A stretch of 64,000 nt of DNA from Macrostomum hystrix (taxonomy: Eukaryota; Animalia; Platyhelminthes): assembly GCA_950097015.1 (NCBI GenBank), contig CATNEN010000038.1, positions 14,446,001 through 14,510,000 of the forward strand, in the 5' to 3' direction. Shown here piece after piece: positions 10,849 to 41,481 of this stretch. The notes beneath the pieces are model-generated. The model was not told where the DNA came from. It made no database searches and was given only the letters and a program-made list of their open reading frames with translations. The stretch's first letter is position 1; every line of letters begins with the position of its first letter. The position numbers and the translations under genes were made by a program.

Positions 10849-12032
10849 ATGGACCAAGTGATCACAGAGACAGTTAAGCCATCCGAGGAACTCGAATGCT
10901 GCCCGGAAAAAGTAGCCGACAAATATTGTGAAGCTTGCGTGTAAGTTCTGCTGTTTTCATGGCGCATATTTTTGACCAATTGTCAGACAATGAAAGCTAC
11001 AGATTTTGCCCCGCATGCGCGCAACGCAATGAGCTCGTACTGAGCAAGCGGAAGCCAAAGCTGTTGCTCGATTTCATCTAGTGGCGTGAGCAAGAATTTT
11101 TCTAGGCTGGCCGCGATCCTGGAGGGCGCCACTACCAGGGATTATTGTATTTTATAGCGGTAACATGAAAAAAATCTGCAGAGCCAAAATCTATCTCAAA
11201 GCCTCTAAAGTGTAGATTCTTTTCAAATCTAAAGGGGGGGTCGGTGGCAGAGCGATCTATCGCGTTTGCCTTTCCCGCCGAGGTCCCTGAGCTCGATTCC
11301 GCGGCGAGGCCAAATTCATTTTGGGGCGCAGCCGCAGAGAGAAGGCTTGGGGGCTTGTCGTGCAATTTTCGCCCTTGAGGGCACAGTGAGAGTGCACACT
11401 GCCTGACGATGAGAGAAAGTCAGTGCAGATGTACACACATGTGTGAGTGTGTGCCTGCGTACGGCATCTGTGTGCGTGTGTGCTCAGGATTCAGCGGAAT
11501 GGGCAGAATTGCCACCTCTCACCAAATGATGTGCTTTTGCCTGCAGCCCTCCTGCAATTAACATTATTATTATCGCTCTACTCTAATCAAGGATGAGCTC
11601 AGCAGTAATTAATGTTCTTATTGGATGCTTACTAAGTTTGCAAACAAAAAACTGCAACCAATAATATAGCGTTGTGTAAAAAATGAAAACTGAATTCTTA
11701 AACTGCTTTCCAACAGTAATTGATATGCTCTTGTGAGTGTCATTGGCACTTGGACAATCAAACTCAGTTAAATCATTCCGATTATCTTTTTTTCAGCATC
11801 ATGTTATTGCATTGCAGTAGTGCAAAATCAGTGCTATTAGTAGCATCTTATGCTCATACAATCGAATTTCATCCGAAAGTGTTTGCAATTTATATTTTTA
11901 AACCCAATTCTCTAAATGTACTTATTTACTATTTAGCTGTCAAGCATATTGATGCATTTCAGTAAAACGAAACAGGAGGCTAGACGAAAAGGCACTCGCT
12001 GGTGCTGTTGCGTTCACCCGGAAGGCCAGTGA
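10849..12032 (+). CDS. Cys/His-rich small protein, paralogue A (single module, 53 aa); exons 10849-10940, 11963-12032: MDQVITETVKPSEELECCPEKVADKYCEACVKTKQEARRKGTRWCCCVHPEGQ
   Basis: ATG, GTAAGT donor right after C-x2-C, TTTCAG acceptor, phase-2 join, CCCxH motif and TGA. The terminal ca|gtgaga could instead be another phase-2 donor. Confidence 0.75.
11234..11573 (+). mobile_element. tRNA-derived SINE family A, near full length, in the intron of paralogue A
   Basis: Pol III A-box-like GGTGGCAGAGCG and B-box-like GCTCGATTCC head, shared body, (ATT)n tail. Confidence 0.85.
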
Positions 12033-13059
12033 GACTGCGATCTAGTTTAACCAATCGACTGCTTACTCGATGTACTGAGTTTCTTTTATTCTCATGGCCT
12101 AAAATCCCCCCTTAGACTAGTTTTTCATGCTTATGCTCATTAATAATTATTACACAGCTTTCACAATCAGACAGGAGGTTTTATGTAAGATCTATCGGAA
12201 AATAATCGGAGCGTAGTAATAAAAATTTGTGGTTAGTGACAGAACAAATCGCAATGTTCCATTTACCGCAGAACCCATTCAAAAAGCAAGCCAAGTTCGC
12301 TTATCTGGCTTCTAACAGAATTCCGTAAATTAGTTTCTTTACTAAAGTTCAATTTTCTATTACTACAAATACACACACTTTGTTGTTAAAAACCGTATTC
12401 AGAGGTCAGAATCTACGATGAGTTCCTTGGTCCTATTGTAGCTAAGATACACTTTGCACTTTCAGATGACACGCTAGGCAACCAGTTGAAGAATAAGGAT
12501 AGCTTCCTACCTTATTGATCTCGTAACTGCTTGGCTTCTTCTGAGGTGCTTTGAATCGAAGGTTCAATTGAACTGATGCTGTCCTTGTGATGAGGTTAAA
12601 TTAAATGCTTGAGGTCAGAGTTGACCAATCATAGTTGTCATTTGTACTTAGACCATAATTTGAACTTCTCAATGCCCTCGTCAGCGAGTTTTTTTTACGT
12701 ATTCTGACGTATTCGAAATTGCATAGGCCATTTTCAAAGAAACCTTAGATAAGAAGTAATCAGATGGTTTAGCGAGATAAGGGATAGTAAGTCTGTTGGC
12801 TTAGTTAGATGACAGATTGTTAGCCAATTGTGCTAGCTAAAGTGGTAGTTTGAGAGCTGTCGTGGTACTCTATCATTTATTTTCTTATGATATTAGCTAG
12901 CTGATTGTTTATAGTCCGATGGGACAAGGTGGAAATTGCTAGTCAATTTACTTAGCACAGTTAAAGTTTTTTGGTCTACGATTTTAATCTCTACCGCTCT
13001 AAATCTTTCATTAGTGCAGTCAGTTCTGATACCTTAATGATATCAGTCAGTTCGCTACG

Positions 13060-13390
13060 TCCTCCAGTCCAAAGCGCTGCGCGATCGCGGTGGGCAGAAG
13101 GTCGACACCGTCATGCTGTACAAAGTCGAGTCGTGGACGCTGACGGCTTCGCTAGAGTGGCAGCTGAACTCGGCGCATTCGGGGCTGTTCCGCGCGGCCT
13201 TCAGAACTGGTGGAAGAGCGTCGGGAACGAGACCCTGTACGAGAGGGCCCAGCTGCAATGCCCGTCCACCATCTTGCACTGGTGGCGGCTTCAACTGGCG
13301 GGCGACGGGATCCAGAGCTATTGCCTGCTGCCTGTTCAGGACGTCCTGCTGCTCACCATGCAGGGTCCGCTCATCAGGGGACACGCTGGA
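13060..13390 (+). mobile_element. Degenerate non-LTR retrotransposon (LINE, RTE-like) fragment from the C-terminal region after the RT domain
   Basis: GC-rich island translating across frameshifts as LYKVESWTLTASLEWQLNSAHSGLFRAAF...ETLYERAQL..PSTIL...RLQLAG...PVQDVLLLTMQGP, resembling the LLY.aEtWTLT...RLqlaGH region of RTE-type LINEs. Confidence 0.65.
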
Positions 13391-13887
13391 GATACCCTTA
13401 ATCAACAGCCTTATTCCACGTATCTTGCCTTTTACATATTTTATATAAGAAGCCGAGTTTTTAATTTAGGAAAATTATTTTCCAACAGTGCTTTGAGAGT
13501 TGTCTATGTCTATGAAAACCGAGTTCAGACAAGCGAGAGCCCAAATCTGTTCCGAAGAGCTTCTTAGGTTCTCAATGGAAAGAAGTAAACTGAAGTCGGA
13601 GTGTATAAAACTGACAACGCTTCTCGTCCAATGAGAGACAGTGACATGCGAACCTTCCATCGCCACGTCATGCAATGTACCGCAGACAATGTGGAGAGCA
13701 CTTTAGCTTCTATTTTAGTGGCATGCTGGTAGATTTAATCCTGAACCACATCCAAGGACCACAAGTAGCAATTCATTACTTCGTTACAGTCTAGATGTAC
13801 TTGTGAGCACCTTATACGAATGCTTGAGTAGTTCGGAACGCAAATAATCAGAAATATTTGTTTTAACTACTTCGAAGTATAGTTATT

Positions 13888-14125
13888 CGCAGCCGCAGAG
13901 AGAACACTTGGGGGTTCGTCGTGTTTGAGGGCCAACCTCCAAGGCGCCGTGAAAGTGTACACTGCCTGACGATGAGAAAGTCAGGGCAGATGTACACACC
14001 TATGTGAGCGTGTGCCTGCGTACGGTATCCGTGTACATGTGTGCTCAGGAGTCAGCGAAATGAACAGAATTGCCTCCTTGATGGCTGAAGGTTTGGTGTC
14101 ACTAAATGATGCTTCATTGCCTTCC
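13888..14125 (+). mobile_element. SINE family A, 5'-truncated copy
   Basis: Shared body sequence (actgcctgacgatgagaaagtcagggcagatgtacacacc...ctcaggagtcagcgaaat). Confidence 0.8.
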
Positions 14126-14371
14126 AGAAAACATTTTTTTATCAGATAATAGATTTGCTTACTAGTTGGTAGTGCATTGATAAGACACACATCATTTCGT
14201 AAATTCCACATTTCCACATTTTCTGCGTACATAGAAAAAACTAAATCTCCACTCGATTGCATCTTTCAATCCCGATCAGTTCCTATCTCCCCTTCCACCC
14301 ACTCACCAACCCATGAAATTCACAAATAAAACAGAGCAAGTGCCTAACCATCTCTATCGGCTTGTGGAATC

Positions 14372-16143
14372 ATGGGACACGAGGGACCATGCTGCGCTGG
14401 CTGCTCCGAGTGCAGGTGAGGCTTGGTTGCGATGCGCTCTCATTGTACCAGTTCTAATCTGGATGAGACTGCTTCAAACTGTTGTTTGATCTTTCTTTAG
14501 CTACTCCTGTTGCTAATGTACATGCAGTATGTACAGACAGTGACACAACCGCACCTATTGCAATGTGAAAGTTGCGCACAGCTGTTCAGTCCGTGGACTG
14601 TAGGAGACTTCACATACCCACTTTTGTACCCCAGCGGGTTGTAGCCTAGTCGTTAGTGCGTCCGTCGGACTCACGACTTGAAGGTCGGGGGTTCGATTCC
14701 TGACTCCACTGGAACAAATTTGTGTCCATTAGCAATACACTTAACTCTTCATTGCTTCAGTTCACCCAGTTGTTAAATGGGTACCAGCATCATCTGTGGT
14801 AATTGCGGGTGGGTGTGGCATCCCCCAAGTGCATGTACTGAACAGCAGTACGCAGCCTTCAGATACGCTGCGCAATAGCTGCGGCAGTGCTGTCGGCTGC
14901 ACATCTGGCCCGATTGGGGCAGGTGTAATCGATTTCTATTTTTAATAGTTCTTCCCCAGCTAAGGCAAGTTGGTTTAGTTGCACAAAACAGAAGCGATAG
15001 GTAGGCAGGCATTTGAACTCCAGACCTCTGAGTTCCAAGTGCAAAGCTCTATGAATTTGGCTCGTTGAAATTTTCTGGAATGACTATGAAACGCTACTAA
15101 CGCATCACAATGGACCCAAACTCTTGGTGGGTAAGCAGTCCAGGTTACTCAATGTCAGGTCACAGTAGGCGTCCAATGTGGTGCAACGCTTGAAACCAAT
15201 AGATAAAAAAATCAATATCAAATCAATATTAATTGGCAGGACTGTCCGAAATTACCTGAAGTGGAAGACCAGTCCGAACCAGTCGAAGCCCTGCTGCTGT
15301 CTAGCCGTGCGACCGCAGCGGTGCTGCCACGTCAAATGGTGCAGCAAATGCGACAAGAAGATGTAGGATTTACCAACTACATTGTCATCTTCTGTTGGGT
15401 TTTGATGTGATAAATTGTGTATCCACCTGTCAATGAAGTTCATGCTCTGGGCAACACTGCTTCATTGTAAACACTAAGACGGGGTTCAGTGGCAGAGCGG
15501 TCTAACGCGTTTCCCTTTCGCACCAAGGTCCGTGAGTTCGATTCCGCGGCGAGGCCACATTCATTTGGCTTGGGGGCTTGTCGTGCAATTTGCGCCCTTG
15601 AGGGCCAATCTCAATCTCAGATGTACACACCTGTTTGAACTGTACACACCTGTCAGCGTGTGCTCGGGAGTAAGCGAAATAGGCTCGCCTCGCAGGCTGC
15701 GGGTCTAGTGTCACAAAACCATGTGCCATTGCCCCGCAGCCCTCCTGCAATCATTACTACTGATATATTACCCTCAAATCGTAGAAAGTTAATTATATTT
15801 TTCTGCTTTGTTTCTGAGCTTCTGATCTAGGCACGGACTTCTCTAGCATCCAGACTGGAAGGTGCTATAGCTAGAGAAGTCCGTGTTTAAGAACAAAAAA
15901 AGAGTACTATAATTTACAAGATAGAATCGAACTCCGGACCAATTATCATTCGTGTGTTGGAAGTGCTTCTCAAAGACTACTTTTCTGGAACCAGTATTCA
16001 AGCAACAAATAGAATTTAAGAACAAATAGTTTGATTTTTGTGAACTGTTTCTGTCGCGCCTTGAACATTTCAGCCAGAAGGGCTACTGCTGTTGCAAGCA
16101 CTATTACTACAAGAATCATAGCGAAGTCTGCAACCTACTCTGA
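14372..16143 (+). CDS. Cys/His-rich small protein, paralogue B (two modules, 78 aa, C-terminal CaaX CNLL); exons 14372-14415, 15240-15362, 16074-16143: MGHEGPCCAGCSECRTVRNYLKWKTSPNQSKPCCCLAVRPQRCCHVKWCSKCDKKIQKGYCCCKHYYYKNHSEVCNLL
   Basis: GT-AG phase-2 introns (ag|gtgagg, at|gtagga) give a continuous frame with the family Cys pattern. Confidence 0.85.
14634..14945 (+). mobile_element. tRNA-derived SINE family B with a CORE-like central domain
   Basis: Head tgtagcctagtcgttag...ggttcgattcc, body tgtgtccattagcaatacacttaactc...cttcagttcacccagttgttaaatgggtacc. Homologous to 58429-58715 and 63376-63570. Confidence 0.8.
15481..15760 (+). mobile_element. SINE family A, internally deleted copy in intron 2 of paralogue B
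   Basis: gtggcagagcggtctaacgcg...gttcgattccgcggcgaggccacattcattt...gcagccctcctgcaat. Confidence 0.8.
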
Positions 16144-16639
16144 TCTGCTTTGCTATTTCATTGAAAAGCAAGACCTGTCAATCATGACAATCCCGGAAAC
16201 TCACTGTACCAGTGCAGCAAATCGGAAATGATATTTTTCTAGAAGAGCAATTAGTGCGTGCTTATAAATACAAAATATAAATATGAAAGCATTCTTTCGA
16301 AAGTTTACACCGGATGTTCTAACTGGCTACTAACAGTAGTAAAATTTACCACATTTTAATTTCATCCTTGGAATGTGAGAATGAATCAAATATGAGTTTG
16401 ATTTGCGATAGGAGCCTCGCGGTTATGAAAAAGACAGTGTTTTATTGTGGAAACACTTAATTTTCTAGTGCTTCAGTTCACCCCGTGGTAAAGTTCGAAT
16501 GAGTCGCTGCAGAGCAGCCTCACCCACGACAAGACTGATGGCACGATTTCGTGTCATGTAATCACTACCAGTCTTGACTGATGATAATTTAGTCTATGTT
16601 CGTAGACCACACTCGGTTAGATAGCACAAACGGCTTCGA

Positions 16640-17060
16640 GGCGGAACTGGACGCTGTCCGTTTGGATCTCCGAGGTGCTGAACCGGTTGAATTCAGCTGA
16701 CATCTCCAGTGGAATCTATAGGCCAGGGCCACTCAGTGCCAGCAAATGCTGAAAGGGCGCTCAACATCCCGTTGGTCGAGGTTCAGCGTCTCCGCTGGGT
16801 CGTCGGCTGGCGCTCGATGGTGCTGCCCGTCGAGGGGGTGGCAACGACCCTGACGTCGCTGTTGTTGGCGGCCAGCAGCGTGTGTTGGTCGGCTCCCGTT
16901 GTGCAGCTAGCGCCGCCAGCGCAACCGACTGCAGCCGCTCACGCTGCAGAACCTTACTGGCATCGACGCGCCCGATTTCGGTGGTTCGTCCACTGCCTGC
17001 TGGCTGACGCAGGCGCACCGGCCACTGCGGTCAGGCTCTGCCGAGCGTCTTCTGATTTTA
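16640..17060 (+). mobile_element. Degenerate LINE fragment, probably the 3' end of the same family as 13060-13390
   Basis: GC-rich island ending in LTLQ.PYWHRRARFRWFVHCLLADAGAP, which continues the LLLTMQGP...RG motif of the 13.3-kb fragment. Confidence 0.5.
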
Positions 17061-17375
17061 CAGAAGAATTGGCAGTGCAAATTTTTGGTATTTTCGTTGC
17101 TGCTATACTAGGTCCAGTACCATGTTAGAGGTGGTACAACCTTGTAGATTTTTATGTACTGTAAAAATTATTGAATTCTTCGTCTGCTATGATGTTGTAT
17201 CTATTTGGAGCACATCGTTTGTAGCTATTATTACTGCAAAGTTAGAATATTTATGGATTCGCTCCGAGCGCAAAAGGGTTGCAGTGATGAAGAATACTTT
17301 TGGCTTTTAATCTTGACTTCTGCCTGAACGACAAGCCGATTTCTCCTTAGTTTCATTGACTCTTCTGAAATTTAA

Positions 17376-18380
17376 ATGCAGTGCTGTACGGCTTTCTTTT
17401 GCATAAATTGCAAGTAAGTTTAATCATTATTTGTACCTGCATTTTTATGAGCACGTTTTCAGTGCGCTCACACCAGTGGCGTAGCTAGGATTTTTGACGA
17501 GAAGGCCCGCGTTTTTTGCGGGCCACTACTGGGGGACGCTACAACTGGGAGAAGGGGCGCCACAACCACACGGGGGCGCCACTATCACACGGGGGGCGCC
17601 ACTATCACACCGGGGGCGCCACTATCACATGGGGGCGCCAATACCACGGGGGGCGCCACAATCACACGGGGGGCGCCACTATCACATGGGGGGCGCCACT
17701 ATCACACGGGGGCGCCACTATCACACGGGGGCGCCACTACCTCGGGGGGCGACACTATATTGGTACTATGGGGCGCCACTATATTGGTACTATGGGGCGC
17801 CACTATATTGGTACTATGAGGCGCCACTATATTGGTACTATGGGGCACCACTATATTGGTACTATGAGGCGCCACTATATCGGTACGATGGGGCACCACT
17901 ATATTGGTACTATGGGGCACCACTATATTGGTACTATGAGGCGCCACTATATTGGTACTATGGGGCGCCACTATATTGGTACTATGAGGCGCCACTAAAT
18001 TGGTACTATGGGGCACCACTATATTGGTACTTTGAGGCGCCACTATATTGGTACTATGGGGCGCCACTATATTGGTACTATGAGGCGCCACTATATTGGT
18101 ACTATGGGGCGCCACTATATTGGTACTATGAGGCGCCACTAAATTGGTACTATGGGGCGCCACTATATTGGTACTATGGGGCGCCACATACCAAGTTTCT
18201 CGACAATCTAGCGAATTTATTACTGAATTTAAAGCTTTTTGAGTCAATAAAAATCTGTTTTGCAACAGATGGGCCTGGCTTAAAGGCTATTGTTGCTGCC
18301 GACACAGCAGAAGACTTTTCATGTCCATGCATCATGTCATGACAGCTGCCACATTTCTGCTAATTTTATGCTTTGCATAA
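17376..18380 (+). CDS. Cys/His-rich small protein, paralogue C (single module plus hydrophobic tail, 49 aa); exons 17376-17413, 18269-18380: MQCCTAFFCINCKWAWLKGYCCCRHSRRLFMSMHHVMTAATFLLILCFA
   Basis: tgc aa|gtaagt donor, CAACAG acceptor, phase 2. KGYCCCxH is shared with exon 3 of paralogue B. Confidence 0.75.
17560..18186. repeat. GC-rich minisatellite (ggggcgccactatcacac units grading into 24-bp ggggcgccactatattggtactat) in the intron of paralogue C
   Basis: Direct tandem repeats visible in the sequence. Confidence 0.95.
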
Positions 18381-18831: not shown

Positions 18832-19956
18832 ATGTCGACAAAATGCTGCTGGAAGAACAGAATGGGAATTCACTGCAAGAATTGTTCGTGAGTAAAACCT
18901 GGGCGACGAAAAAGCTTCCTCTATCCTCTTCCTTAAACACCCAGCAGCTTTCTCTTGACTCTTCAATATCCCATAGAAAAATTCCGCTATCGGTCTTTCA
19001 TTCTGCTACCTATCAGACTGCTCATAAATCGATCCGCTTCCCTAGAAACCTATTGGATTTCTTAGAAACCTTTGGATTTACTAAAAACCCTTGAAATCCT
19101 TAGCAAGTCATTGGGTTTCCTAAGATCCGCTTTCCTGGAAACCGGAAACCCACCCGTTATCCTGGAAACCCAACCGCTTTCCTAGAAACTCGTCCGCTTT
19201 CTTGAAACCCACCCGCTTTTCTGGAAACCGATCCGCTTTCATAGAAACCCACCCGCTTTTCTGGAAACCGATCCGCTTTCATAGAAACCCACCCGCTTTT
19301 CTGGAAACCAATCCGCTTTCCTAAAACCCCATTCGCTTTCCTAGAAACCAATCCGCATTCCTAGAAACCCATTCGCTTTCCTAGAAACCCACCCGATTTC
19401 CTAGAAACCCACCCGCTTTTTGGAAATTCACCCGCTTTCCTAGAAACCCATCCGTTTTCCTAGAAACCCATCCGCTTTTTTTGGAAACCCACCCGCTTTC
19501 CTAGAAACCCACCCGCTTTTTTGGAAATCCACCCGCTTTCCTAGAAACCCATCCGTTTTCCTAGAAACCCAAAGGCTTTCCTTGAAGCCCAATGGCTTCC
19601 CTGGTAACACGTATAAAAAAATCGCTGTCGTCAGAAGAATCGAAGACTACGCTGAACTGCGCGAAGTTCGGGCTCCGTGCTGCTGCAAGCATCCGACCTG
19701 GCTGCATCCATCGGACACAAGTGCCTGCTGCAACAGCTGGAGCTACAGCAGCGGCTGGGTTTGCGAGCTCTGTTGGGAAAAACGATGGTGAGAATGTGTG
19801 CTTTGATTATGAGTCCTAATTAGTCTAGATTACTCATTATATCTCTAAATGAGTTGCCCCCTTGCTTGCAGTTTCGTTGGGCCCAAAGATGACAGGAGTC
19901 GAAAGAACTGGCCAAAATGCTGCTGCAAGCATCACTTCTATCACTACGGAAAGTAG
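18832..19956 (+). CDS. Cys/His-rich small protein, paralogue D (97 aa); exons 18832-18887, 19635-19787, 19872-19956: MSTKCCWKNRMGIHCKNCSRIEDYAELREVRAPCCCKHPTWLHPSDTSACCNSWSYSSGWVCELCWEKRCFVGPKDDRSRKNWPKCCCKHHFYHYGK
   Basis: Donors tc|gtgagt and tg|gtgaga, CAG acceptors, both phase 2, continuous frame. Confidence 0.88.
19030..19572. repeat. ~20-21-bp minisatellite (ctagaaacccacccgctttc) in intron 1 of paralogue D
   Basis: Direct tandem repeats. Confidence 0.9.
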
Positions 19957-20687
19957 ATGTTGAAGATCTCTATGAGACAAGAGAACACAATGGGCATGTG
20001 ATAAAAGCGCATAAAATAACGCAATAAATTTAACTGGTCCCATTTATCAATGAATCTTAATTAAAATCGCACGTAGATTAAGTACCGCTTGAACTATTAT
20101 ATATTGATTTACTCTGAAACTTTTCTATTAGACTAGTCTATATTCAACTTTATTGCCGGTTAATTTTTTAAGTAATAAATGCGAGTCTATTTTCCCTTTT
20201 TTGTTTCGACATATTATTTCACATTTTTCTTATTTCTATAATTTTCTCTTCGCTGGCTATGCTGAACCAGGTAGATCCCCGTTCTATTTTTAGACATGAG
20301 AAATCTAGCCTCTCACTACACAGCGAGTGGAGTTTCTGTTGATCTATTTTTGGAAATGGCGCCAAACACTAATCGGGAAAGAATTAAGTGTCCCATTTTG
20401 GACCATTGTTTTATCGAAGATATTTTCTTATTTACAAACAAATGATTAAGTGTTTAATATTTATCCTAAAAGTTTTACCATAACATTGAGCACGTATGGT
20501 GTGAGCAACGAGATCGACAATTTTGAGGAACGTAGCACCTCAAAGCGTCACCATTCTAAAAAATAAGATGCTAGTAAATAAAAAGTTTTGGCAGTTTTTT
20601 ATGGAAAATATCTTAAAGATATGCGTTGCATTATATTTCCGCGCCTTCCTTAGCTTGCTCAGTGATAACCAGATTGAAAACATCTGA

Positions 20688-20753
20688 ATGACAACTAAGG
20701 GCTGCTATCAGTCTAGGCAATGGGTTGCGTGCCAATAAATGCAGGAATTGCAG
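20688..20753 (+). pseudogene. Pseudogene E of the Cys/His-rich family: frameshifted exon 1 only, exons 2-3 absent
   Basis: The upstream sequence matches paralogue F (cttccttagcttgctcagtgataaccagatt...atgacaact vs cttccttagcttactcggtgattaccagatt...atgtcaact). It ends in tgc agg aat tgc ag|gtaagt but is 66 nt (wrong phase, TAA in the ATG frame). The intron-1 satellite runs straight into the 3' satellite. Confidence 0.75.
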
Positions 20754-21690: not shown

Positions 21691-22020
21691 ATTCTTAATC
21701 TAGTTCCGAATTCTTAATACAGTATCAAATCCTTAATCCAGAACCGAATCCTTAATCCAGTACCGAATCCTTAATCCAGTACCGAATCCTTAATCTAGTG
21801 CCGAATCCTTAATCTAGTGCCGAATCCTTAATCTAGTGCCGAATCCTTAATCTAGTGCCGAATCCTTAATCCAGTGCCGAATCCTTAATCTACTACCGAA
21901 TCCCTAATCCACTCCACAATTCTGAATCCTGTCCTGAATCCTTAATCTAGACCTTAATCCATAATCCTGTCCCGAATCTTTAATCTTGTCCCGAATCCTT
22001 AATCATGTCCCGAATCATTA
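21690..22020. repeat. 19-bp minisatellite (gaatccttaatctagtgcc)
   Basis: Direct tandem repeats; related array at 25488-26805. Confidence 0.9.
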
Positions 22021-24563: not shown

Positions 24564-25332
24564 ATGTCAACTGCCTGCTGCAATGATTATTGGTCTTTCT
24601 TAGGCTACGTCTTTTGGCCATGCAGCATGTGCGAGTAAGCAGTCTCATTTCTCAAACAAGACTAACCCTATAATGTGACTACACAGCTATTTGACCTGAC
24701 AACCATTTGACCTGACAACCATTTGACCTGACAACCATCTGACCTGACAACCATCTGACCTGACAACCATCTGACCTGACAACCATTTGACCTGACAACC
24801 ATTTGACCTGCCCACCTTGACCTGACAACCATTTGACCTGACAACCATTTGACCTGACAGCCATTTGACCTGACCACCGTTTGACCTGACAACCATCTGA
24901 CCTGACAATCATAGTATCCGGTATACATTGAGGATTCGACATCCTTAAACCCAAGCCTGCCGTATTTTCTATTTCGCTAAATACGCTGGTAATAACAATG
25001 GACCATTTTACACCTTGCATGTACATCAGATTAGTGAAGTCATTTGCTAATTACTGGAACAGCCATGCTCCACATGAAAGGAGATTCTCGTGCACCTGTT
25101 GCAAACACTTTGCCTTTTTTCTGTCAGCTGATTGCTGTCAGAATGCAGTCAGATGCTCAGCTTGCAAACATTTTAAATGGTGAGAATTGTATTCTAACTG
25201 TTACCTGTTGTTCAAGTACTAAAAAGGTAGCCGCCAAAAATATAGTGAACCATTTGGGTTCATTTCAGTGATCCTGACAAGAAGAGGCCCGACTGCTGCT
25301 GCAAGCACTATTGCATGAGCCACGCCGCCTGA
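24564..25332 (+). CDS. Cys/His-rich small protein, paralogue F (94 aa); exons 24564-24634, 25030-25179, 25269-25332: MSTACCNDYWSFLGYVFWPCSMCELVKSFANYWNSHAPHERRFSCTCCKHFAFFLSADCCQNAVRCSACKHFKCDPDKKRPDCCCKHYCMSHAA
   Basis: Donors ga|gtaagc and tg|gtgaga, acceptors ATCAG and TTTCAG, phase 2, continuous frame. Confidence 0.88.
24688..24910. repeat. 16-bp minisatellite (gacctgacaaccattt) in intron 1 of paralogue F
   Basis: Direct tandem repeats. Confidence 0.92.
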
Positions 25333-27562: not shown

Positions 27563-27742
27563 AGAAAATATGACTTGTGTCATTTCCAAAATAGTGAGTG
27601 ACAACACACTTAGGTACTACCCAGTAATCCCTTCTCTCTATATATAAAGATTTTTTTAAACTGATTTCAACTATCTGAACAGAAAAGAATTCCCTTAGAC
27701 ATATCCTAAACTTATAAATCCAATTCCGAGAAGCAATTGAAA

Positions 27743-28639
27743 ATGTCTGGCAACCTGTGCTGCCCAAATGCCCAAACTCGTCGCTGCGCTAACTGCAAGT
27801 GAGGCGTTTATACATTTTTATATTCGTGCATTGTATTAAATTTAGAATTAACTCAGTGAATGATCCAAAATTTCAGTAAACTAAATGAATTTGTGGCATG
27901 GAAGAACAGTCACTTTGACGCCTCTCGGGTCAGAGTCTGCTGCCATCTGCACTTCAGGGACCTCATTGATGATAATTGCTGTGACCCTGATGCCTGCCCA
28001 GTGTGCTCCGAATACCACAGGTAAGTACCACAGGTTGGGGCATAGGTGCCGCAAGCCTTAGCTAGTTCTCAACTCAATCTGTCGTCCTCTTGTCTATTTT
28101 TCAGCTCAATCTGTACTGCACTAATCGAGTTCTCACCTCAATCTGTACTACACTTATCTAGTTCTCAGCTCAACCTGTACTGCACTTATCTAGTTCTCAC
28201 CTCAATCTGTACTGCACTTATCTAGTTCTCAGCTCAATCTGTACTGCACTTATCTAGTTCTCACCTCAATCTGTACTGCACTTATCTAGTTCTCAGCTCA
28301 ATCTGTACTGCACTTATCTAGTTCTCAGCTCAATCTGTACTGCACTTATCTAGTTCTCAGCTCAATCTGTACTGCACTTATCTAGTTCTCAGCTCAATCT
28401 GTACTGCACTTATCTAGTTCTGAGCTCAATCTGTACTGCACTTATCTAGTTCTCAGCTCAATCTGTACTGCACTTATCTAGTTCTCAACTCAATCTGTAC
28501 TTCACTTATCTAGTTCTCAGCTTCACCTACGTACAGGTGTTAATAAAATATTCCTTTCAGCTTCTTCTATCGGCAAGAAATCAGGAGATCTGCACCGAAG
28601 TGCTGCTGCAAGCATTATTACGAGTACAAAGCCCAATAG
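27743..28639 (+). CDS. Cys/His-rich small protein, paralogue G (92 aa); exons 27743-27798, 27877-28020, 28561-28639: MSGNLCCPNAQTRRCANCNKLNEFVAWKNSHFDASRVRVCCHLHFRDLIDDNCCDPDACPVCSEYHSFFYRQEIRRSAPKCCCKHYYEYKAQ
   Basis: Donors aa|gtgagg and ag|gtaagt, TTTCAG acceptors, phase 2, continuous frame. Confidence 0.9.
28062..28525. repeat. 32-bp minisatellite (gctcaatctgtactgcacttatctagttctca) in intron 2 of paralogue G
   Basis: Direct tandem repeats. Confidence 0.93.
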
Positions 28640-29332: not shown

Positions 29333-29802
29333 TCACAGAATTGAGCAACCGGCTTGAGACTTGCTCTCCTTTTCTTGCTGTTCCTTCATCTTTTTGAAGT
29401 GATGCTTGCAGCAGCAAGAACTGAAAATAAATTTTTTACCGCTCTAAGAAATTGTCAAGACACTTAGTTAGTTTGAATCAAACACGTTGCATACCTTTGA
29501 TACTGCTTGCAGGCTTCGCACTCGATTTGATTACAACAGTGGTCATCTAGCAGTTCCGAGTGATGCAGGTGGCAGCAGCGCTGTCGCACCTGGTTGAAGG
29601 TCCCCAGGTGTTGATTCCGCCATGTTACATACTCCTTGACCCAACTGAAATCAGGAGTTTTTCAGAGCCTATAACCAAAGCTGACCTTAATTGAAACAAC
29701 TATCCGCTGTCTGTGTTACAGAAAGTTTCAAATTCATGTGTTTTACCTGCATTTGGGGCAGCCATTACCAATTTGAGCGCGGCAACAGCCTTGACCCGAC
29801 AT
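29333..29802 (-). CDS. Cys/His-rich small protein, paralogue H (97 aa, inverted, C-terminal CaaX CSIL); exons 29802-29747, 29644-29495, 29420-29333: MSGQGCCRAQIGNGCPKCSWVKEYVTWRNQHLGTFNQVRQRCCHLHHSELLDDHCCNQIECEACKQYQSSCCCKHHFKKMKEQQEKESKSQAGCSIL
   Basis: Minus-strand donors ag|gtaaaa and ag|gtatgc, TTTCAG acceptors, phase 2, continuous frame to TGA. Confidence 0.9.
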
Positions 29803-30363: not shown

Positions 30364-33305
30364 ATGTCGGGACAGTATTGTTGCCCAGCAGCTCGAGGTT
30401 ATTATTATTGCGAAGACTGCAAGTAAGATAACAATTGAATTGCTGTACTCACTTTGAGATCGCGGAATAAAGTACCATTGAATCATATTTCAGATGGGTT
30501 AAGGCATACGTGATTTGGCAGAATCGCTTCCTAGAGCCGAATGAGCAGAACCGACTGCCGTGCTGTCATCTGCATCACTCACAACTGCTTGACGATACCT
30601 GCTGCAACCCGCTTGTGTGCACCCTGTGCAGAGAGTATCGCTGGTATGACGAATTGCATCACTAGCCTGATTAACTGCCTCACTAACTGGCCTCACTAAC
30701 TGGCCTCACTAACTGGCCTCACTAACTGGCCTCACTAACTGGCCTCACTAACTGGCCTCACTAACTGGCCTCACTAACTGGCCTCACTAACTGGCCTCAC
30801 TAACTGGCCTCACTAACTGGCCTCACTAACTGGCCTCACTAACTGGCCTCACTAACTGGCCTCACTAACTGGCCTCACTAACTGGCCTCACTAACTGGCC
30901 TCACTAACTGGCCTCACTAACTGGCCTCACTAACTGGCCTCACTAACTGGCCTCACTAACTGGCCTCACTAACTGGCCTCACTTACTGGCCTCACTAACT
31001 AACCGGCCACTTGCTGGCCTCACTAACTAATCGGCCACTTACTGGCCTCACTAACTGGCCTCACTAACTGGCCTCACTTACTGGCCTCACTAACTAACCG
31101 GCCACTTGCTGGCCTCACTAACTAATCGGCCACTTACTGGCCTCACTAACTAATCGGCCACTTACTGGCCTCACTAACTAATCGGCCACTTACTGGCCTC
31201 ACTAACTAATCGGCCACTTGCTGGCCTCACTAACTAATCGGCCACTTACTGGCCTCACTAACTAATCGGCCACTTACTGGCCTCACTAACTGGCCTCACT
31301 AACTGGCCTCACTAACTGGCCTCACTAACTGGCCTCACTAACTGGCCTCACTAACTGGCCTCACTAACTGGCCTCACTAACTGGCCTCACTAACTGGCCT
31401 CACTAACTGGCCTCACTAACTGGCCTCACTAACTGGCCTCACTAACTGGCCTCACTAACTGGCCTCACTAACTGGCCTCACTAACTGGCCTCACTAACTG
31501 GCCTCACTAACTGGCCTCACTAACTGGCCTCACTAACTGGCCTCACTAACTGGCCTCACTAACTGGCCTCACTAACTGGCCTCACTAACTGGCCTCACTA
31601 ACTGGCCTCACTAACTGGCCTCACTAACTGGCCTCACTAACTGGCCTCACTAACTGGCCTCACTAACTGGCCTCACTAACTGGCCTCACTAACTGGCCTC
31701 ACTAACTGGCCTCACTAACTGGCCTCACTAACTGGCCTCACTAACTGGCCTAACTAACTGGCCTCACTTACTGGCCTCACTAACTAACCTGCCACTTGCT
31801 GGCCTCACTAACTAATCGGCCACTTACTGGCCTCACTAACTGGCCTCACTAACTGGCCTCACTTACTGGCCTCACTAACTAACCGGCCACTTGCTGGCCT
31901 CACTAACTAATCGGCCACTTACTGGCCTCACTAACTAATCGGCCACTTACTGGCCTCACTAACTAATCGGCCACTTACTGGCCTCACTAACTAATCGGCC
32001 ACTTGCTGGCCTCACTAACTAATCGGCCACTTACTGGCCTCACTAACTAATCGGCCACTTACTGGCCTCACTAACTGGCCTCACTAACTGGCCTCACTAA
32101 CTGGCCTCACTAACTGGCCTCACTAACTGGCCTCACTAACTGGCCTCACTAACTGGCCTCACTAACTGGCCTCACTAACTGGCCTCACTAACTGGCCTCA
32201 CTAACTGGCCTCACTAACTAACCGGCCACTTGCTGGCCTCACTAACTAATCGGCCACTTACTGGCCTCACTAACTAATCGGCCACTTACTGGCCTCACTA
32301 ACTAATCGGCCACTTACTGGCCTCACTAACTGGCCTCACTAACTGGCCTCACTAACTGGCCTCACTAACTGGCCTCACTAACTGGCCTCACTAACTGGCC
32401 TCACTAACTGGCCTCACTAACTGGCCTCACTAACTGGCCTCACTTACTGGCCTCACTAACTAACCGGCCACTTGCTGGCCTCACTAACTAATCGGCCACT
32501 TACTGGCCTCACTAACTAATCGGCCACTTGCTGGCCTCACTAACTAATCGGCCACTTGCTGGCCTCACTAACTAATCGGCCACTTACTGGCCTCACTAAC
32601 TAATCGGCCACTTGCTGGCCTCACTAACTAATCGGCCACTTACTGGCCTCACTAACTAATCGGCCACTTACTGGCCTCACTAACTGGCCTCACTAACTGG
32701 CCTCACTAACTGGCCTCACTAACTGGCCTCACTAACTGGCCTCACTAACTGGCCTCACTAACTGGCCTCACTAACTGGCCTCACTAACTGGCCTCACTTA
32801 CTGGCCTCACTAACTAACCGGCCACTTGCTGGCCTCACTAACTAATCGGCCACTTACTGGCCTCACTAACTAATCGGCCACTTACTGGCCTCACTAACTA
32901 ATCGGCCACTTACTGGCCTCACTAACTGGCCTCACTAACTGGCCTCACTAACTGGCCTCACTAACTGGCCTCACTAACTGGCCTCACTAACTGGCCTCAC
33001 TAACTGGCCTCACTAACTGGCCTCACTTACTGGCCTCACTAACTAACCGGCCACTTGCTGGCCTCACTAACTAATCGGCCACTTACTGGCCTCACTAACT
33101 AATCGGCCACTTGCTGGCCTCACTAACTAATCGGCCACTTGCTGGCCTCACTAACTAATCGGCCACTTACTGGCCTCACTAACTAATCGGCCACTTACTG
33201 GCCTCACTAACTAATCGGCCACTTACATACTGCAGGCAGTTCTACATTAACGGGACTCGTCGGCCGCGTCCAGATTGCTGCTGCAAGCACATCTACATCG
33301 CCTGA
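30364..33305 (+). CDS. Cys/His-rich small protein, paralogue I (92 aa); exons 30364-30422, 30494-30643, 33236-33305: MSGQYCCPAARGYYYCEDCKWVKAYVIWQNRFLEPNEQNRLPCCHLHHSQLLDDTCCNPLVCTLCREYRWQFYINGTRRPRPDCCCKHIYIA
   Basis: Donors aa|gtaaga and tg|gtatga, acceptors TTTCAG and CTGCAG, phase 2, continuous frame. Confidence 0.88.
30672..33226. repeat. 13-bp minisatellite (cactaactggcct) interspersed with a 28-bp variant (cctcactaactaatcggccacttactgg), filling intron 2 of paralogue I
   Basis: Direct tandem repeats in alternating blocks. Confidence 0.97.
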
Positions 33306-34269: not shown

Positions 34270-35020
34270 ATGGCTGATCGCTGCTGCAGCTCAGCCCACG
34301 ACTCACAGCTCAAATGTTGGCAGTGCGAGTGAGAAATTTAACTGGCTTTGTGTTTGATCTTATCGAATAGGCCCTAACAAATTGGAATTAGTGATCAAAT
34401 TGTGTTGTCTCTATACAACACAACAACAAGAATCGGTGAATATCTCGACGATGCTGACGTCGCTGAAGTTAGCTCATCGTAAAGGGGGTTAAAAATGTAG
34501 ATCCATATGGTGGATTTTCACGAAAATTGGTCAATTGGTTTATGAGCTATCGTGAAGTAGGAAGTGAGCATTGGAAATGCCCACGTGGATTTTCCCAAGG
34601 GACAAATGGCGGGTTATTTCTACTGTTAACATACTCGTATTTATCTCACGGAATTATCTAACAATTTTTACCAATGATTTCGAAAATAAATCTTTCAGAC
34701 GATTGAAGGACTTCGTGATGTTTCAGAATTACAATTTGCCATCAAACAATCAAATCAGGCTGTGCTGTCATGAGCACTTTATGCACCTTTTTGACAACAG
34801 TTGCTGCGATGCTCAGCAGTGCAAAGTGTGCGCCCATCACTACAGGTAATTTCCAGGAATACTAAAGAAAACTGTTTCCATTTGTCTAGATTTTTTGACA
34901 ACAAAGAACAACATTTATTTCAGTGTCTTCTTTCCAAATGGCAGTCGCCGAGTACGACCGAATTGCTGCTGCAAGCACTTCTATAACAGTCGATTCCACA
35001 ATTGGACTGTGCTCAACTGA
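34270..35020 (+). CDS. Cys/His-rich small protein, paralogue J (100 aa); exons 34270-34328, 34699-34845, 34924-35020: MADRCCSSAHDSQLKCWQCERLKDFVMFQNYNLPSNNQIRLCCHEHFMHLFDNSCCDAQQCKVCAHHYSVFFPNGSRRVRPNCCCKHFYNSRFHNWTVLN
   Basis: Donors ga|gtgaga and ag|gtaatt, TTTCAG acceptors, phase 2, continuous frame. Confidence 0.88.
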
Positions 35021-36120: not shown

Positions 36121-38117
36121 ATGTCTACCTTGTGCTGCCGATCAGCTTACATTCGAGGGTACAATTGTTATTACTGCAAGTGAGTTCACCAACACAACTA
36201 TAATATTTGTAAGTTGAGCACACTGATTACACTGTAGAATTATCCACGAAAGTTTGCCAATCTTACAGCCGCCTGCACGCGTATGTCAACTGGAAAAATG
36301 CACTTGTGCCACTAATAGACCAAGCTAGGGTCTGCTGCCACGTACACCACTGGAACATGCTCCAGGACGATTGCTGCATCTGGCAGAGCTGTGCTGTCTG
36401 CAAAAAATACCATTCGTAAGTGGCTTGGGAGAGGGTCAGTGGCAGCGGTCTAACGCGTCTGCCTTTCGCACTAAGGTCCCCTGAGCTCGATTCCACGGCG
36501 AGGCCGAAGTCATTTGGGGCGCAGTCGCGGAGAGGAGGCTTGGGGGTTGTCATGCAATTGACGCCCTTGAAGAGGGCCAACCCTGACGATGAGAAAGTCA
36601 GGGCAGATGTACACACCTGTTTGATTGTGTGCCTGCGTACAGTATGTGCGTGCGCGTGTGCTCAGGAGTCAGCGAAATGGGCAGCATTGCTTCCTCGCTG
36701 GCTGCGGGTCTAGTGTCACCAAATGATGTGCCATTGGCCGCAGCCCTCCTTAAATTAATAATATTCTTCTTATTATTCGTCCTCTTACCTAGTTCTCACC
36801 TCAATCTGTCGTCCTCTTACCTAGTTCTCACCTCAATCTGTCGTCCTCTTACCTAGTTCTCACCTCAATCTGTCGTCCTCTTACCTAGTTCTCACCTCAA
36901 TCTGTCGTCCTCTTATCTAGTTCTCACCTCAATCTGTCGTCCTCTTACCTAGTTCTCACCTCAATCTGTCGTCCTCTTACCTAGTTCTCACCTCAATCTG
37001 TCGTCCTCTTACCTAGTTCTCACCTCAATCTGTCGTCCTCTTACCTAGTTCTCACCTCAATCTGTCGTCCTCTTACCTAGTTCTCACCTCAATCTGTCGT
37101 CCTCTTACCTAGTTCTCACCTCAATCTGTCGCCCTCTTACCTAGTTCTCACCTCAATCTGTCGTCCTCTTACCTAGTTCTCACCTCAATCTGTCGTCCTC
37201 TTACCTAGTTCTCACCTCAATCTGTCGCCCTCTTACCTAGTTCTCACCTCAATCTGTCGCCCTCTTACCTAGTTCTCACCTCAATCTGTCGTCCTCTTAC
37301 CTAGTTCTCACCTCAATCTGTCGTCCTCTTACCTAGTTCTCACCTCAATCTGTCGTCCTCTTACCTAGTTCTCACCTCAATCTGTCGTCCTCTTACCTAG
37401 TTCTCACCTCAATCTGTCGCCCTCTTACCTAGTTCTCACCTCAATCTGTCGCCCTCTTACCTAGTTCTCACCTCAATCTGTCGTCCTCTTACCTAGTTCT
37501 CACCTCAATCTGTCGCCCTCTTACCTAGTTCTCACCTCAATCTGTCGTCCTCTTACCTAGTTCTCACCTCAATCTGTCGTCCTCTTACCTAGTTCTCACC
37601 TCAATCTGTCGTCCTCTTACCTAGTTCTCACCTCAATCTGTCGCCCTCTTACCTAGTTCTCACCTCAATCTGTCGTCCTCTTACCTCGTTCTCACCTCAA
37701 TCTGTCGTCCTCTTACCTAGTTCTTACCTCAATCTGTCGTCCTCTTACCTAGTTCTCACCTCAATCTGTCGTCCTCTTACCTAGTTCTCACCTCAATCTG
37801 TCGTCCTCTTACCTAGTTCTCACCTCAATCTGTCGTCCTCTTACCTAGTTCTCACCTCAATCTGTCGTCCTCTTACCTAGTTCTCACCTCAATCTGTCGT
37901 CCTCTTACCTAGTTCTCACCTCAATCTGTCGTCCTCTTACCTAGTTCTCACCTCAATCTGTCGTCCTCTTACCTAGTTCTCACCTCAATCTGTCGTCCTC
38001 TTGTCTACGTACAGGTGTGAATAAAATTTTCCTTTCAGCTTCTTCTATCCGAATGAAGTCAGGAGACCTGCACCGAAGTGCTGCTGCAAGCATTATTACT
38101 CGTACAAAGCCCAATAG
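36121..38117 (+). CDS. Cys/His-rich small protein, paralogue K (94 aa); exons 36121-36179, 36269-36415, 38039-38117: MSTLCCRSAYIRGYNCYYCNRLHAYVNWKNALVPLIDQARVCCHVHHWNMLQDDCCIWQSCAVCKKYHSFFYPNEVRRPAPKCCCKHYYSYKAQ
   Basis: Donors aa|gtgagt and tc|gtaagt, acceptors TTACAG and TTTCAG, phase 2, continuous frame. Confidence 0.9.
36432..36775 (+). mobile_element. SINE family A in intron 2 of paralogue K
   Basis: tRNA-like head, shared body, AT-rich tail. Confidence 0.85.
36778..38003. repeat. 32-bp minisatellite (cctagttctcacctcaatctgtcgtcctctta) in intron 2 of paralogue K
   Basis: Direct tandem repeats. Confidence 0.97.
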
Positions 38118-38414
38118 ACGTCGCAACTGATCAAACTTTATAAAAATTCACTTTTGATTGCTTCAGACTGACATGCATGCTTACTGTTTTTACATGTACA
38201 CCAAATAAAGGTTTTTTGTCTTTTGCAACTTTTGCCATATCGAATAAATATACAGATTTCAGAAACATTCATCAGCTAATGAAGTGAAATTATTTTTCAT
38301 ATTATATATTAGATACTGGTCTCGTGTTTGCTACTTTGGAGTCGGGTAGATGTGTCTGATGTTCTGATGTCTGATAGATGTGTCTGATGTTTTGATGTCT
38401 GATAGATGTGTCTA

Positions 38415-38626
38415 GGGGGTCGGTGGCAGAGCGGTTAACGCGTTTGCCTCTCGCACCACGGTCCCTAAGTTCGATTCCACGGCGGGGCCACAATTATTTG
38501 GGGCGCAGCCGCGGAGAGAAGGCTTGGGGGCTTGTCGTGCAATTTACGCCCTTGAGGGCCAATCTCCAAGGCACAGTGAAGTGTACACTGCCTGACGATG
38601 AGAAAGTCAGGGCAGATGTACACACC
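38415..38626 (+). mobile_element. SINE family A, 3'-truncated copy running into a minisatellite
   Basis: gggggtcggtggcagagcggttaacgcg...gcagatgtacacacc. Confidence 0.85.
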
Positions 38627-39130
38627 CTACTTTTCAATCCTCTCAACCTACTTTTCCATCCTCTCACCCTACTTTTCCATCCTCTCACCCTACTTTTCCA
38701 TCCTCTCACCCAGCTTTTCCATCCTCTCTCCCAGCTTTTCCATCCTCTCACCCTACTTTTCCATCCTATCAACCTACTTTTCCATCCTCTCTCCCAGCTT
38801 TTCCATCCTCTCTCCCTACTTTTCCATCCTATCAACCTACTTTTCCATCCTCTCTCCCAGCTTTTCCATCCTCTCTCCCTACTTTTCCATCCTATCAACC
38901 TACTTTTCCATCCTCTCTCCCAGCTTTTCCATCCTCTCTCCCTACTTTTCCATCCTATCAACCTACTTTTCCATCCTCTCTCCCAGCTTTTCCATCCTCT
39001 CTCCCTACTTTTCCATCCTCTCTCCCTACTTTTCCATCCTCTCTCCCAGCTTTTCCATCCTCTCACCCTACTTTTCCATCCTCTCACCCGGCTTTTCCAT
39101 CCTCTCACCCTACTTTTCCATCCTCTCATC
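38625..39130. repeat. 21-bp pyrimidine-rich minisatellite (cctacttttccatcctctcac)
   Basis: Direct tandem repeats. Confidence 0.95.
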
Positions 39131-39765
39131 CTGATTGCATTCCTGTCACTCTTCTGAGGATAGTTTTCTGATCTCAACAATCGAATGATAAGCACCATTC
39201 AATGCAGTAAATACCGAATCTAAATTCATAGATGATTTAGATAAATATGCATAGTAGTTAGTTTAGATAAAATATGCATATTTAGTAATATGCATATTAT
39301 TACTTAAGTAAGCGGTTTTATTTACCTCTTTTAATAAGCAACAAAATTCAATAAAAGTACAGAACTGACAAGATATTTTGTAAGATCTAAACTTATTTTC
39401 TTGCGGTTCTTACACTCACGAAACACCAGGTAATAGCGAAGTTTCTATTTATAAATCTAAGTTTTCGGTTTTAATTTGTACAATTCTAAACAACAGCTGA
39501 GCGCAGAGGTTAATGGGGGTTGGTCAGAAAGCTATTTTTAGAAACCGGGGAATCCAGCCACATCATTTGGAGCGCTTGAAATGTAACTGTGCTCAAATAG
39601 TTTCTTGCCTATTCTATACTCAAACATCATTATCATCGTCATGATGAAGGTTCTACCTGATAGATATTCGGCTATAAAAGTTGATGGGCATCTAAATGCG
39701 GTGGACAATCAAACAAAGGTAAAGCATCGTTGTTCTTCAATAGTTACATTTTGGTAAGAAAAATA

Positions 39766-41481
39766 ATGGACTGCCCCGTTCAATGCTGCGCTAGACTGAA
39801 AACATGTTTTTGGTGTCAGTAAGTGCCAAGCGTATATATATTAATATTATTATTCAATATCAATTGATAATCCGCATTGAGGTGGATAAAGCCGAGAGTG
39901 ATACTCTGCAGTGAGATGGATAAAGCAGAGATTGATAATCTGCAGTGGTATAGATTATGAGAGATTGAGCTTGAGGGATTGAGATCTCGTGGTGAGGCGG
40001 GATTAAGGTAACTAATAACGGAAATCAAAACCTTAAAAATTACTAAAAACTGAGCGGTTAAGCCCTGAAAATTTTGCATTATCTTTTACGCTCGATTTAA
40101 TTATATTTCCGTATGACTCTACTGTCAGTAGAAACGCCAGAGGACTAAATTTAAAAGTAAAAAACACGCTTGCAGAATGTCTATCGCGTACGCTGACTGG
40201 AAAGGCGGCGAAAGGTCGCCCTGCTGCTGCGTCCACGCCGGCAGCGACAGGGATTCTTGCTGCGAGCAAAGCAGCTGCGACAAGTGCCAGAGCCTGGGAA
40301 TGTAAGAGTTACCGCTTTTGCGACTTGGCTGTGCGGACTTCTCCTCAATCTCTTGCTGTCACTGTCAATCACTCAGTCTCTCTGTTATTTTCTATCTCTT
40401 ATTGTCTGCCTTACTGTCTACCTCTCACTGTCTATCTCTCACTGTCTACCTCTCACTGTCTATCTCTCACTGTCTATCTCTCACTGTCTATCTCTCACAG
40501 CTTATCTGTCAATGTTTATCTCTCACTGTCTATATCTTACTGTCTATCTCTCACTGTCTATCTGTCACTGTCTATCTCTCACAGTCTATCTCTCACTGTC
40601 TATATCTTACTGTCTATCTCTCACTGTCTATCTCTCACTGTCTATCTGTCACTGTCTATCTGTCACTGTTTATCTGCCACTGTCTATCTGCCACTGTCTA
40701 TCTCTCACTGTCTATCTCTCACTGTCTATCTCTCACTGTCTATCTGCCACTGTCTATCTCTCACTGTCTATCTGCCACTGTCTATCTCTCACTGTCTATC
40801 TCTCACTGTCTATCTCTCACTGTCTATCTCTCACTGTCTATCTCTCACTGTCTATCTCTCACTGTCTATCTCTTACTGTCTATCTCTCACTGTCTATCTC
40901 TCACTGTCTATCTCTTACTGTCTATCTGTCACTGTCTATCTCTCACTGTCCATATCTTACTGTCTATCTCTCACTATCTATCTGTTACTGCCTATCTCTC
41001 ACTGCCTATCTCTCACTGTCTATCTCTCACTGTCTATCTCTCACTGTCTATCTGTCGATGTATATCGCTCATTGCATATCATGATAATATTAAATGCCGG
41101 AGGACAGCGGGCAATGGCACATCATTTGGTGACAGTAGATCAGCAGCCCGCAAGTAGGCGATTCTGCCCATTTAGCTGACTCCTGAGCACACACACACAC
41201 ACACACACACACCCACACTCACACAGAGATACCGTGTGTGTACCGCAGACACACACTCACACGCATTAGACAGCTCTGCCACTGACATTATAATGCACAA
41301 ATCATATTTCTCACAAGTTAATGCATAAATTTATGATTCTTAATAATATCAACTCAAAATACTTTACCCTCTCGCCTATTCTCGCAGTCTGTGGACAAGT
41401 CAGCGTGTCCCCAGACAGGATTTTCCAGACTGCTGCTGCAAGCATTACTATTGTGCCTACATCTTTGAAGCGAAGAAATAA
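39766..41481 (+). CDS. Cys/His-rich small protein, paralogue L (90 aa); exons 39766-39818, 40176-40301, 41388-41481: MDCPVQCCARLKTCFWCQMSIAYADWKGGERSPCCCVHAGSDRDSCCEQSSCDKCQSLGILWTSQRVPRQDFPDCCCKHYYCAYIFEAKK
   Basis: Donors ca|gtaagt and at|gtaaga, acceptors TTGCAG and TCGCAG, phase 2, continuous frame. AATAAA near 41500. Confidence 0.88.
40410..41055. repeat. 14-bp minisatellite (tctctcactgtcta) in intron 2 of paralogue L
   Basis: Direct tandem repeats. Confidence 0.95.
41083..41286 (-). mobile_element. SINE family A, inverted, internally deleted and degenerate
   Basis: gcgggcaatggcacatcatttggtgaca...gctgactcctgagcacacac...gctctgccactgac is the reverse complement of the SINE tail and head. 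Confidence 0.7.

Follow-up and report, generated by a model that had tools for sequence, protein, structure and literature searches.

What is encoded at positions 10849 to 41481 of the stretch analysed here, where short Cys/His-rich exons recur, and what would such proteins do? The stretch (called the window) comprises 64,000 nucleotides of the flatworm Macrostomum hystrix (assembly GCA_950097015.1, contig CATNEN010000038.1, positions 14,446,001 to 14,510,000). As described below, the exons form a cluster of real, at least partly expressed spliced genes. For their products we give an even chance to a reading drawn from sequence, namely that they are zinc-cluster mini-domains which would present a conserved aromatic helix and variable loops to intracellular partners.

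Gene models of the cluster

A six-frame motif scan followed by coordinate assembly resolved 10849–41481 into 11 intact gene models and one exon-1 remnant, arranged in tandem. The open models encode 49–100 residues each and comprise 31 coding exons of 38–153 nucleotides, 2841 nucleotides in total. Together with the Markov null given below, this bears out the first-pass annotation of the DNA, which had proposed 11 intact genes of this size and exon length and one pseudogene. The scan, which was unbiased, showed the Cys/His motifs of the window concentrated in this region. When ATG, CC, CxxC and the next donor were searched for mechanically, all 11 first exons were found to have a GT donor in phase 2, one codon past CxxC, and the lengths of all nine middle exons are multiples of three; all 20 introns are therefore in phase 2 with GT-AG borders. 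Tandem arrays make up 40% of the cluster.

Motif counts were compared with those in 200 second-order Markov copies. The cluster contains 11 sites of the type ATG..CC..CxxC with a phase-2 GT, 18 CC[CH]xH and 10 CCCKH, against null means of 0.005, 0.185 and 0 (maxima 1, 2 and 0), and none of the three motif types occurs in the window outside the cluster. The counts are far above chance. The models are as follows.

Gene A, 10849..12032, plus strand: one module, 53 residues; exons 10849-10940, 11963-12032
Gene B, 14372..16143, plus strand: two modules, 78 residues; exons 14372-14415, 15240-15362, 16074-16143; module 1 without His
Gene C, 17376..18380, plus strand: one module and a hydrophobic tail, 49 residues; exons 17376-17413, 18269-18380
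Gene D, 18832..19956, plus strand: two modules, 97 residues; exons 18832-18887, 19635-19787, 19872-19956
Pseudogene E, 20688..20753, plus strand: remnant of exon 1 with a degenerate CC, a broken frame and the donor retained; paralogous to the first part of F
Gene F, 24564..25332, plus strand: two modules, 94 residues; exons 24564-24634, 25030-25179, 25269-25332; module 1 ends CTCCKH
Gene G, 27743..28639, plus strand: two modules, 92 residues; exons 27743-27798, 27877-28020, 28561-28639
Gene H, 29333..29802, minus strand, inverted relative to the other genes: two modules, 97 residues; exons 29802-29747, 29644-29495, 29420-29333
Gene I, 30364..33305, plus strand: two modules, 92 residues; exons 30364-30422, 30494-30643, 33236-33305; 2.6-kb minisatellite intron
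Gene J, 34270..35020, plus strand: two modules, 100 residues; exons 34270-34328, 34699-34845, 34924-35020
Gene K, 36121..38117, plus strand: two modules, 94 residues; exons 36121-36179, 36269-36415, 38039-38117
Gene L, 39766..41481, plus strand: two modules, 90 residues; exons 39766-39818, 40176-40301, 41388-41481

The flank of pseudogene E (20617-20696) and the start of F (24492-24572) share 79% identity, and a profile scan for later exons of E gave none. The same series of minisatellites follows E (20801-24033) and F (24689-27562), with a shared 253-nucleotide spacer that is 92% identical. The region would thus represent a local duplication in which the later exons of E are missing. Minisatellites in the intron of gene C leave a 285-codon open frame on the plus strand (17485-18342) with Tyr/Trp/Gly-rich repeats of eight residues, which is probably non-coding.

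Splicing and N-termini

Five public runs carry part of 27570-30660, four of them (X2-X5) from one study and X1 from a second. The runs were compared in two stretches, 28530-30660 and 10700-17500 (four runs each); 10 of the 20 predicted junctions lie outside these. The runs are not on record as RNA and were read as such because introns are skipped and cover falls on exons, untranslated regions and short interspersed nuclear elements (SINEs), not on most intergenic DNA.

Mapping reads across the 20 junctions had been proposed as a check on the gene models. Contigs joined seven of the 20 (in genes A, G, H, I and K), the donor of gene C was supported in part, and the two junctions of gene B were not seen. 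The junction of gene A (10940>11963) was found as an exact joint in X3, X4 and X5, three of the four runs; both introns of gene H and the first intron of gene I were joined exactly in X2, X3 and X4, again three of four. For exon 3 of gene I, the loose ends of contigs match letter for letter in these last three runs, and a join of the same kind links exons 2 and 3 of gene G in X1, X3 and X4, this being the only junction supported by the second study. For gene K, loose ends equal to exon 2 letter for letter were found on X2-X4 contigs that carry a K-type exon 3 and had cross-mapped on G, differing from the last exon of G at five positions. At gene C, low-depth contigs stop at the donor 17413 (X3, X5) and unspliced contigs enter the intron (X3, X4).

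Upstream of gene C, a GC-rich stretch (16420-17047) has low-depth contig cover in three runs; it is possible that it represents an upstream non-coding exon or a separate transcript. One contig over the start of C carries 49 extra letters before 17297.

The proteins had been described as lacking a signal peptide, and this was supported. In all 11 genes the ATG is preceded, at 3-111 nucleotides, by an in-frame stop, and the interval contains no in-frame Met. At the transcript level, unbroken contigs extend 52, 82, 49 and 131 nucleotides 5' of the ATG in A, C, H and I (starting at 10797 for A and, in X3, at 30233 for I, and reaching 29851 for H in X3 and X4), and each includes the in-frame stop. 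Since these contigs are contiguous with the genome, an additional exon coding for a signal peptide is excluded for those forms of the four genes. No hydrophobic N-terminal stretch was found in the cluster proteins. It is established that, without a signal peptide, the cysteines would reside in a reducing compartment.

These results bear on the possibility that the products are secreted, disulfide-bonded peptides resembling toxins or defensins. The six cysteines of the module do follow the order CC-C-C-CC of conotoxin framework III, and hypervariable loops in a tandem array are typical of such peptides. However, neither a signal nor a pro-peptide precedes the first module, unbroken contigs of A, C, H and I contain the upstream stop, and many members have an odd number of cysteines, so that this explanation is largely refuted.

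Module anatomy and candidate roles

A total of 27 modules were parsed, 20 from the window and seven, partly redundant, from three relatives described below (P0003, P0009 and P0004). CC, CxxC and the closing CC are kept across all 27, module 1 of F being irregular, and a His follows at +5 in 26. At the third position of the last cluster, 18 modules carry C, five carry H and three carry Y, the three Y representing one shared module. Because this position varies, seven ligand positions (six Cys and one His) are near-invariant; the eight Cys/His ligands per module proposed earlier hold for these seven only. The parse otherwise reproduced the module spacing given by the first-pass annotation, its two exceptions (module 1 of B, ending CCCLA, and module 1 of F, reading CTCCKH) and the CCCKH end of all nine two-module genes. 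Most last modules have a basic stretch ahead of CCCKH. First modules share a register after CxxC, with Y/F at +6 in 11/11, W at +9 in 8/11 and N at +11 in 8/11. Since the one-module gene A is spliced as predicted, the unit consists of a first and a last exon, and a middle exon joins the closing part of one module to the opening part of the following one.

Outside the ligand columns, which are kept, identity among the window paralogs is only 7-43%, and the Cys codons vary synonymously. The family had been suggested to be rapidly diversifying, which was not borne out: in all ten pairs among genes G-K the proportion of non-synonymous differences (pN, 0.32-0.47) is below that of synonymous differences (pS, 0.57-0.85, near saturation). 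The pattern fits old duplicates under purifying selection, as far as can be judged from these sequences. A tree of 11 two-module proteins had support for one of its eight inner branches, and therefore no order of duplication is claimed.

The last exons of G and K are identical at 72/79 nucleotides and their 3' flanks at 258/300, whereas exons 1 and 2 agree at only 36/59 and 77/147. This points to conversion or shuffling at the level of exons and suggests a recent exon exchange. The near-identical segments lie at 28561-28939 and 38039-38417, and both genes have arrays of 32-nucleotide units in intron 2.

A conserved Cys/His ligand set in a non-secreted protein, as found here, is what a zinc mini-domain calls for, and we consider it likely that the seven ligands bind metal, most simply two zinc ions. 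In the preferred reading they would hold a two-zinc cluster, in which either one thiolate acts as a bridge or the variable C/H supplies an eighth ligand. On binding metal, a helix starting at the first CxxC would become fixed, its conserved face consisting of a hydrophobic residue at +3 and the Y/F, W and N at +6, +9 and +11, while the loops between ligands would be free to vary and would make each paralog specific in its own way. Genes with two modules probably arose by fusion of two one-module genes, and the symmetric phase-2 middle exon would permit modules to be added or swapped. A more far-reaching version is doubtful: a fold not yet described, in which six Cys and one His in the order CC/CxxC/CCxxH hold two zinc ions, might serve as a minimal intracellular binder scaffold, multiplied in tandem and reassorted by symmetric phase-2 exons and last-exon exchange, forming a body-wide repertoire that is unannotated at ≤100 residues.

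The ligand pattern was compared with known families. Pfam gave no family for eight middle-exon translations and the three full-length relatives, metallothionein profiles included; NCBIfam gave no match for these relatives, and a sequence search of the PDB gave none that was meaningful, its matches to lysozyme and UPK1B (E 0.37-3.9) being due to chance. HMMER filters hide most matches above E 0.1. RING, PHD, B-box, CXC, DM, TAZ, THAP and SAP30, for all of which Pfam contains models, went without a match in Pfam, NCBIfam and PDB sequences. In the ESM Atlas the best score, for P0003, was 0.85; its neighbours (0.81-0.85) lean to small zinc-knuckle proteins and serve as a lead only, and there was no usable match for P0004. 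Rfam and ARAGORN found nothing. The earlier statement that the proteins belong to no recognised family was thereby upheld.

Some resemblance can nevertheless be described. THAP and SAP30 C2CH zinc fingers similarly have an N-terminal Cys pair and a conserved Trp and close with C-x2-H, after which an aromatic residue often stands, but the cluster module has seven ligands instead of four, a much shorter spacing and a tandem arrangement. The Zn2Cys6 (Gal4) and DM domains also have six to eight Cys/His ligands able to hold two zinc ions and a helix running from CxxC; the cluster module differs in its order CC/CxxC/CCxxH and its variable spacers, and no sequence match to them was found, nor a fold match from the weak model described below. 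None of the likenesses to THAP, Zn2Cys6, Dre2 and conotoxin framework III was supported by the scans.

Cys/His ligand sets do not fix the identity of the metal, and the module may instead bind an iron-sulfur cluster or copper and act as a redox or metal sensor. A C-x8-C-x2-C spacing resembles motif 1 of anamorsin/Dre2. We give this explanation very little weight, as the spacing is far more variable than in iron-sulfur motifs and no match was found in Pfam or the PDB.

The basic stretch before CCCKH suggests yet another role, in which it and the CCC would be S-acylated and tether an adaptor whose remainder binds partners at membranes. The N-terminal Cys cluster of fish Tgm1 is an acylated anchor. 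The cluster seen here is similar to that of Tgm1 (PMC5417640), and the hydrophobic tail of gene C would also agree with such a role. The linked CC, CxxC and His of every module and the CCHxH variants are left unexplained by acylation, which makes it very unlikely as the general function.

A more serious contender is an atypical metallothionein family, in which the modules would form metal-thiolate clusters that buffer Zn or Cu and render Cd harmless, and would have no specific protein partner. Like metallothioneins (below about 10 kDa), the cluster proteins are small (49-100 residues), intracellular (no signal peptide) and modular, and their CC and CCC clusters resemble those of Tetrahymena subfamily 7a; that subfamily and C. 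elegans MT-1 share these traits and sometimes have His ligands. The spacers between the ligands are variable, two paralogs outside the window are expressed body-wide (see below), and no described Macrostomum metallothionein was found in the open-access literature. In contrast, the 936 residues of the cluster include 143 Cys, 52 His and 112 aromatics (15%, 6% and 12%), about half the Cys density of metallothioneins, together with long Cys-free spacers, the conserved non-ligand helix face and no Pfam match whatever. Metal-responsive element-like sites numbered four in the 11 upstream stretches of 600 nucleotides, against about five expected from the rate in the window, and eight of the 11 genes had none. 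This argument is weak because C. elegans metallothionein genes also lack such elements, according to the account in PMC4101491, which likewise describes metallothioneins bearing His in that species. As characterised in PMC1808422 and PMC4101491, metallothioneins have more than 25% Cys and few aromatic residues or His, with exceptions. In a toxicology review, the word metallothionein is absent from the main text (PMC11641670). It is the conserved helix face that leads us to prefer a folded binding module over a pure metal buffer, which we consider unlikely.

Several observations weigh against a zinc mini-domain with specific partners. Metal binding, fold and partners are predicted only. The spacers measure 2-13 residues in gap 1 and 6-23 in gap 2, a variation that would suit a metal-thiolate chain better than a fixed fold, and some metallothioneins carry CC/CCC clusters, modules and some His or aromatic residues (PMC1808422, PMC4101491). 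The helix face is clear in first modules only, being absent from A, C and the second modules, and module 1 of gene B lacks the His. For gene B no joint was found and exons 2-3 had no cover in the four runs compared, although missing cover is no proof of silence. No sign of positive selection appeared in pN/pS of the G-K pairs. AlphaFold2, run on P0003 with an alignment of eight rows, gave a mean predicted local distance difference test score (pLDDT) of 46.6 and a predicted template modelling score (pTM) of 0.36, from which a fold is not established. The only moderately confident part was a helix at 16-33, which covers the conserved register (block pLDDT 65-67), and Foldseek on this weak model gave a best E of 8.1.

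Relatives in Macrostomum and neighbouring features

A profile of the nine middle exons was searched with HMMER against 1.84 billion representatives and returned three matches. One of them, P0003 (E 8e-9), is a full-length protein with two modules that is annotated as hypothetical in Macrostomum lignano (BOX15_Mlig003191g1, PAA81084.1). P0009 (BOX15_Mlig005498g2, also M. lignano) is 90% identical to it; a search with P0003 gave two candidates, both from M. lignano. P0004 (UniRef A0A1I8HKB7) is a model with three modules, and its third part shares 52% identity with the middle exon of D, so a D-like gene exists elsewhere. In this model two neighbouring genes may have been merged into a chimera. 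The M. lignano relatives share the two-module layout, the Y/W/N register and the CCCKH end with the window genes and are 38-45% identical to G-K; they differ in that module 1 ends CCYIH, are encoded outside the window and are uncharacterised. The family therefore extends beyond this locus.

These three M. lignano models were the only relatives found in the profile search and in additional word searches, so that the earlier claim of a lineage-specific family is sustained as regards its narrow taxonomic range. A word search with the exon-2 alignment gave no homolog among 29 candidates at E up to 1, but it also missed P0003 and is hence insensitive; none of 381 longer proteins was a homolog, which is weak evidence. 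The other two of the three profile matches, P0001 and P0002, were rejected as repeat-derived chance matches. The metagenome locus L001, the only one of 48 stretches to pass with P0003, was a chance match opposite another open frame on a prokaryote-type contig.

A minimum of 100 residues, the default of TransDecoder, would explain why members of 102 residues are annotated and genes of 49-100 residues were not found in protein collections. It was with this program that the M. lignano genome paper assessed coding potential (PMC5730564).

The expression of the relatives bears on the idea that the cluster encodes intracellular structural proteins, which would hold zinc until oxidation and become disulfide-crosslinked as a sperm tail or bristle, the stylet or the epidermis hardens. 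Small Cys-rich proteins that lack a signal peptide and are arrayed in tandem do occur among keratin-associated and sperm-tail proteins, and the UniRef label of P0004 reads 'Sperm protein'. However, the genes of P0003 and P0009 are both classed 'Non-Specific' in positional RNA-seq, not as testis, ovary or tail region, and one of the two is higher in grouped than in isolated worms (both in the supplement of PMC7336406). Adults differ little from hatchlings, with log2 fold changes of 0.50 (adjusted P 0.025) and 0.33 (adjusted P 0.12) in the supplement of PMC10092323. The two paralogs, to which these data are confined and which lie outside the window, are thus not gonad-specific, leaving the label 'Sperm protein' unsupported. 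A fixed His and CxxC are also unlike a low-complexity crosslinker, and we regard a structural role as quite unlikely.

Neither 'Sperm protein' nor the name 'DUF2769 domain-containing' given to P0009 was backed by Pfam scans (no family for P0009 at E up to 10), and no basis for the former was found. The two gene identifiers are absent from the supplements of PMC5816591, PMC12896417, PMC11398382, PMC12801592 and PMC8662610, some of which use other identifier systems.

Other features of the window are listed here.

1594-1938, plus strand: helix-turn-helix fragment like Tc1/mariner transposases
4239-5888, plus strand: intronless DEG/ENaC gene; one 549-codon open frame that matches the amiloride-sensitive sodium channel family (PF00858, E 1e-41)
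7806-9107, plus strand: 433-codon open frame that encodes a tyrosine recombinase domain (PF00589, E 1e-9), with a weak DUF3504 match as well; probably a Crypton-type transposon
47048-47554, plus strand: calmodulin-like EF-hand exon, then a Gly/Ser/Ala-rich tail
52634-60391, minus strand: GPR158/179 extracellular-domain exons split by long minisatellites
10317-10600, 11235-11518, 13888-14121, 15481-15756, 36433-36750, 38415-38626, 45553-45922, 57597-57932 and 58813-59028: copies of a dispersed repeat of about 300 nucleotides

The repeat copies are 80-95% alike and SINE-like by eye, with no tRNA or Rfam call, and have a very high summed contig depth in the public runs.

No description of the family was found in the open-access literature searched. 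It appears to be an undescribed one, known so far only from Macrostomum and new among small Cys/His metal-binding proteins. Its interest is limited by this narrow range. A multigene family that is at least partly expressed stands unannotated in a flatworm genome, with a ligand pattern absent from searches of Pfam, NCBIfam and the PDB. As these are short genes in a worm that lends itself to RNA interference and transgenesis, both a zinc fold and a metallothionein role are cheap to test. If the proteins are metallothioneins, they would be candidate metal-buffering proteins of Macrostomum, an animal used in toxicology. If they form a true zinc fold, it would be a very small zinc cluster that tolerates changes in its loops, of relevance to domain evolution and protein design.

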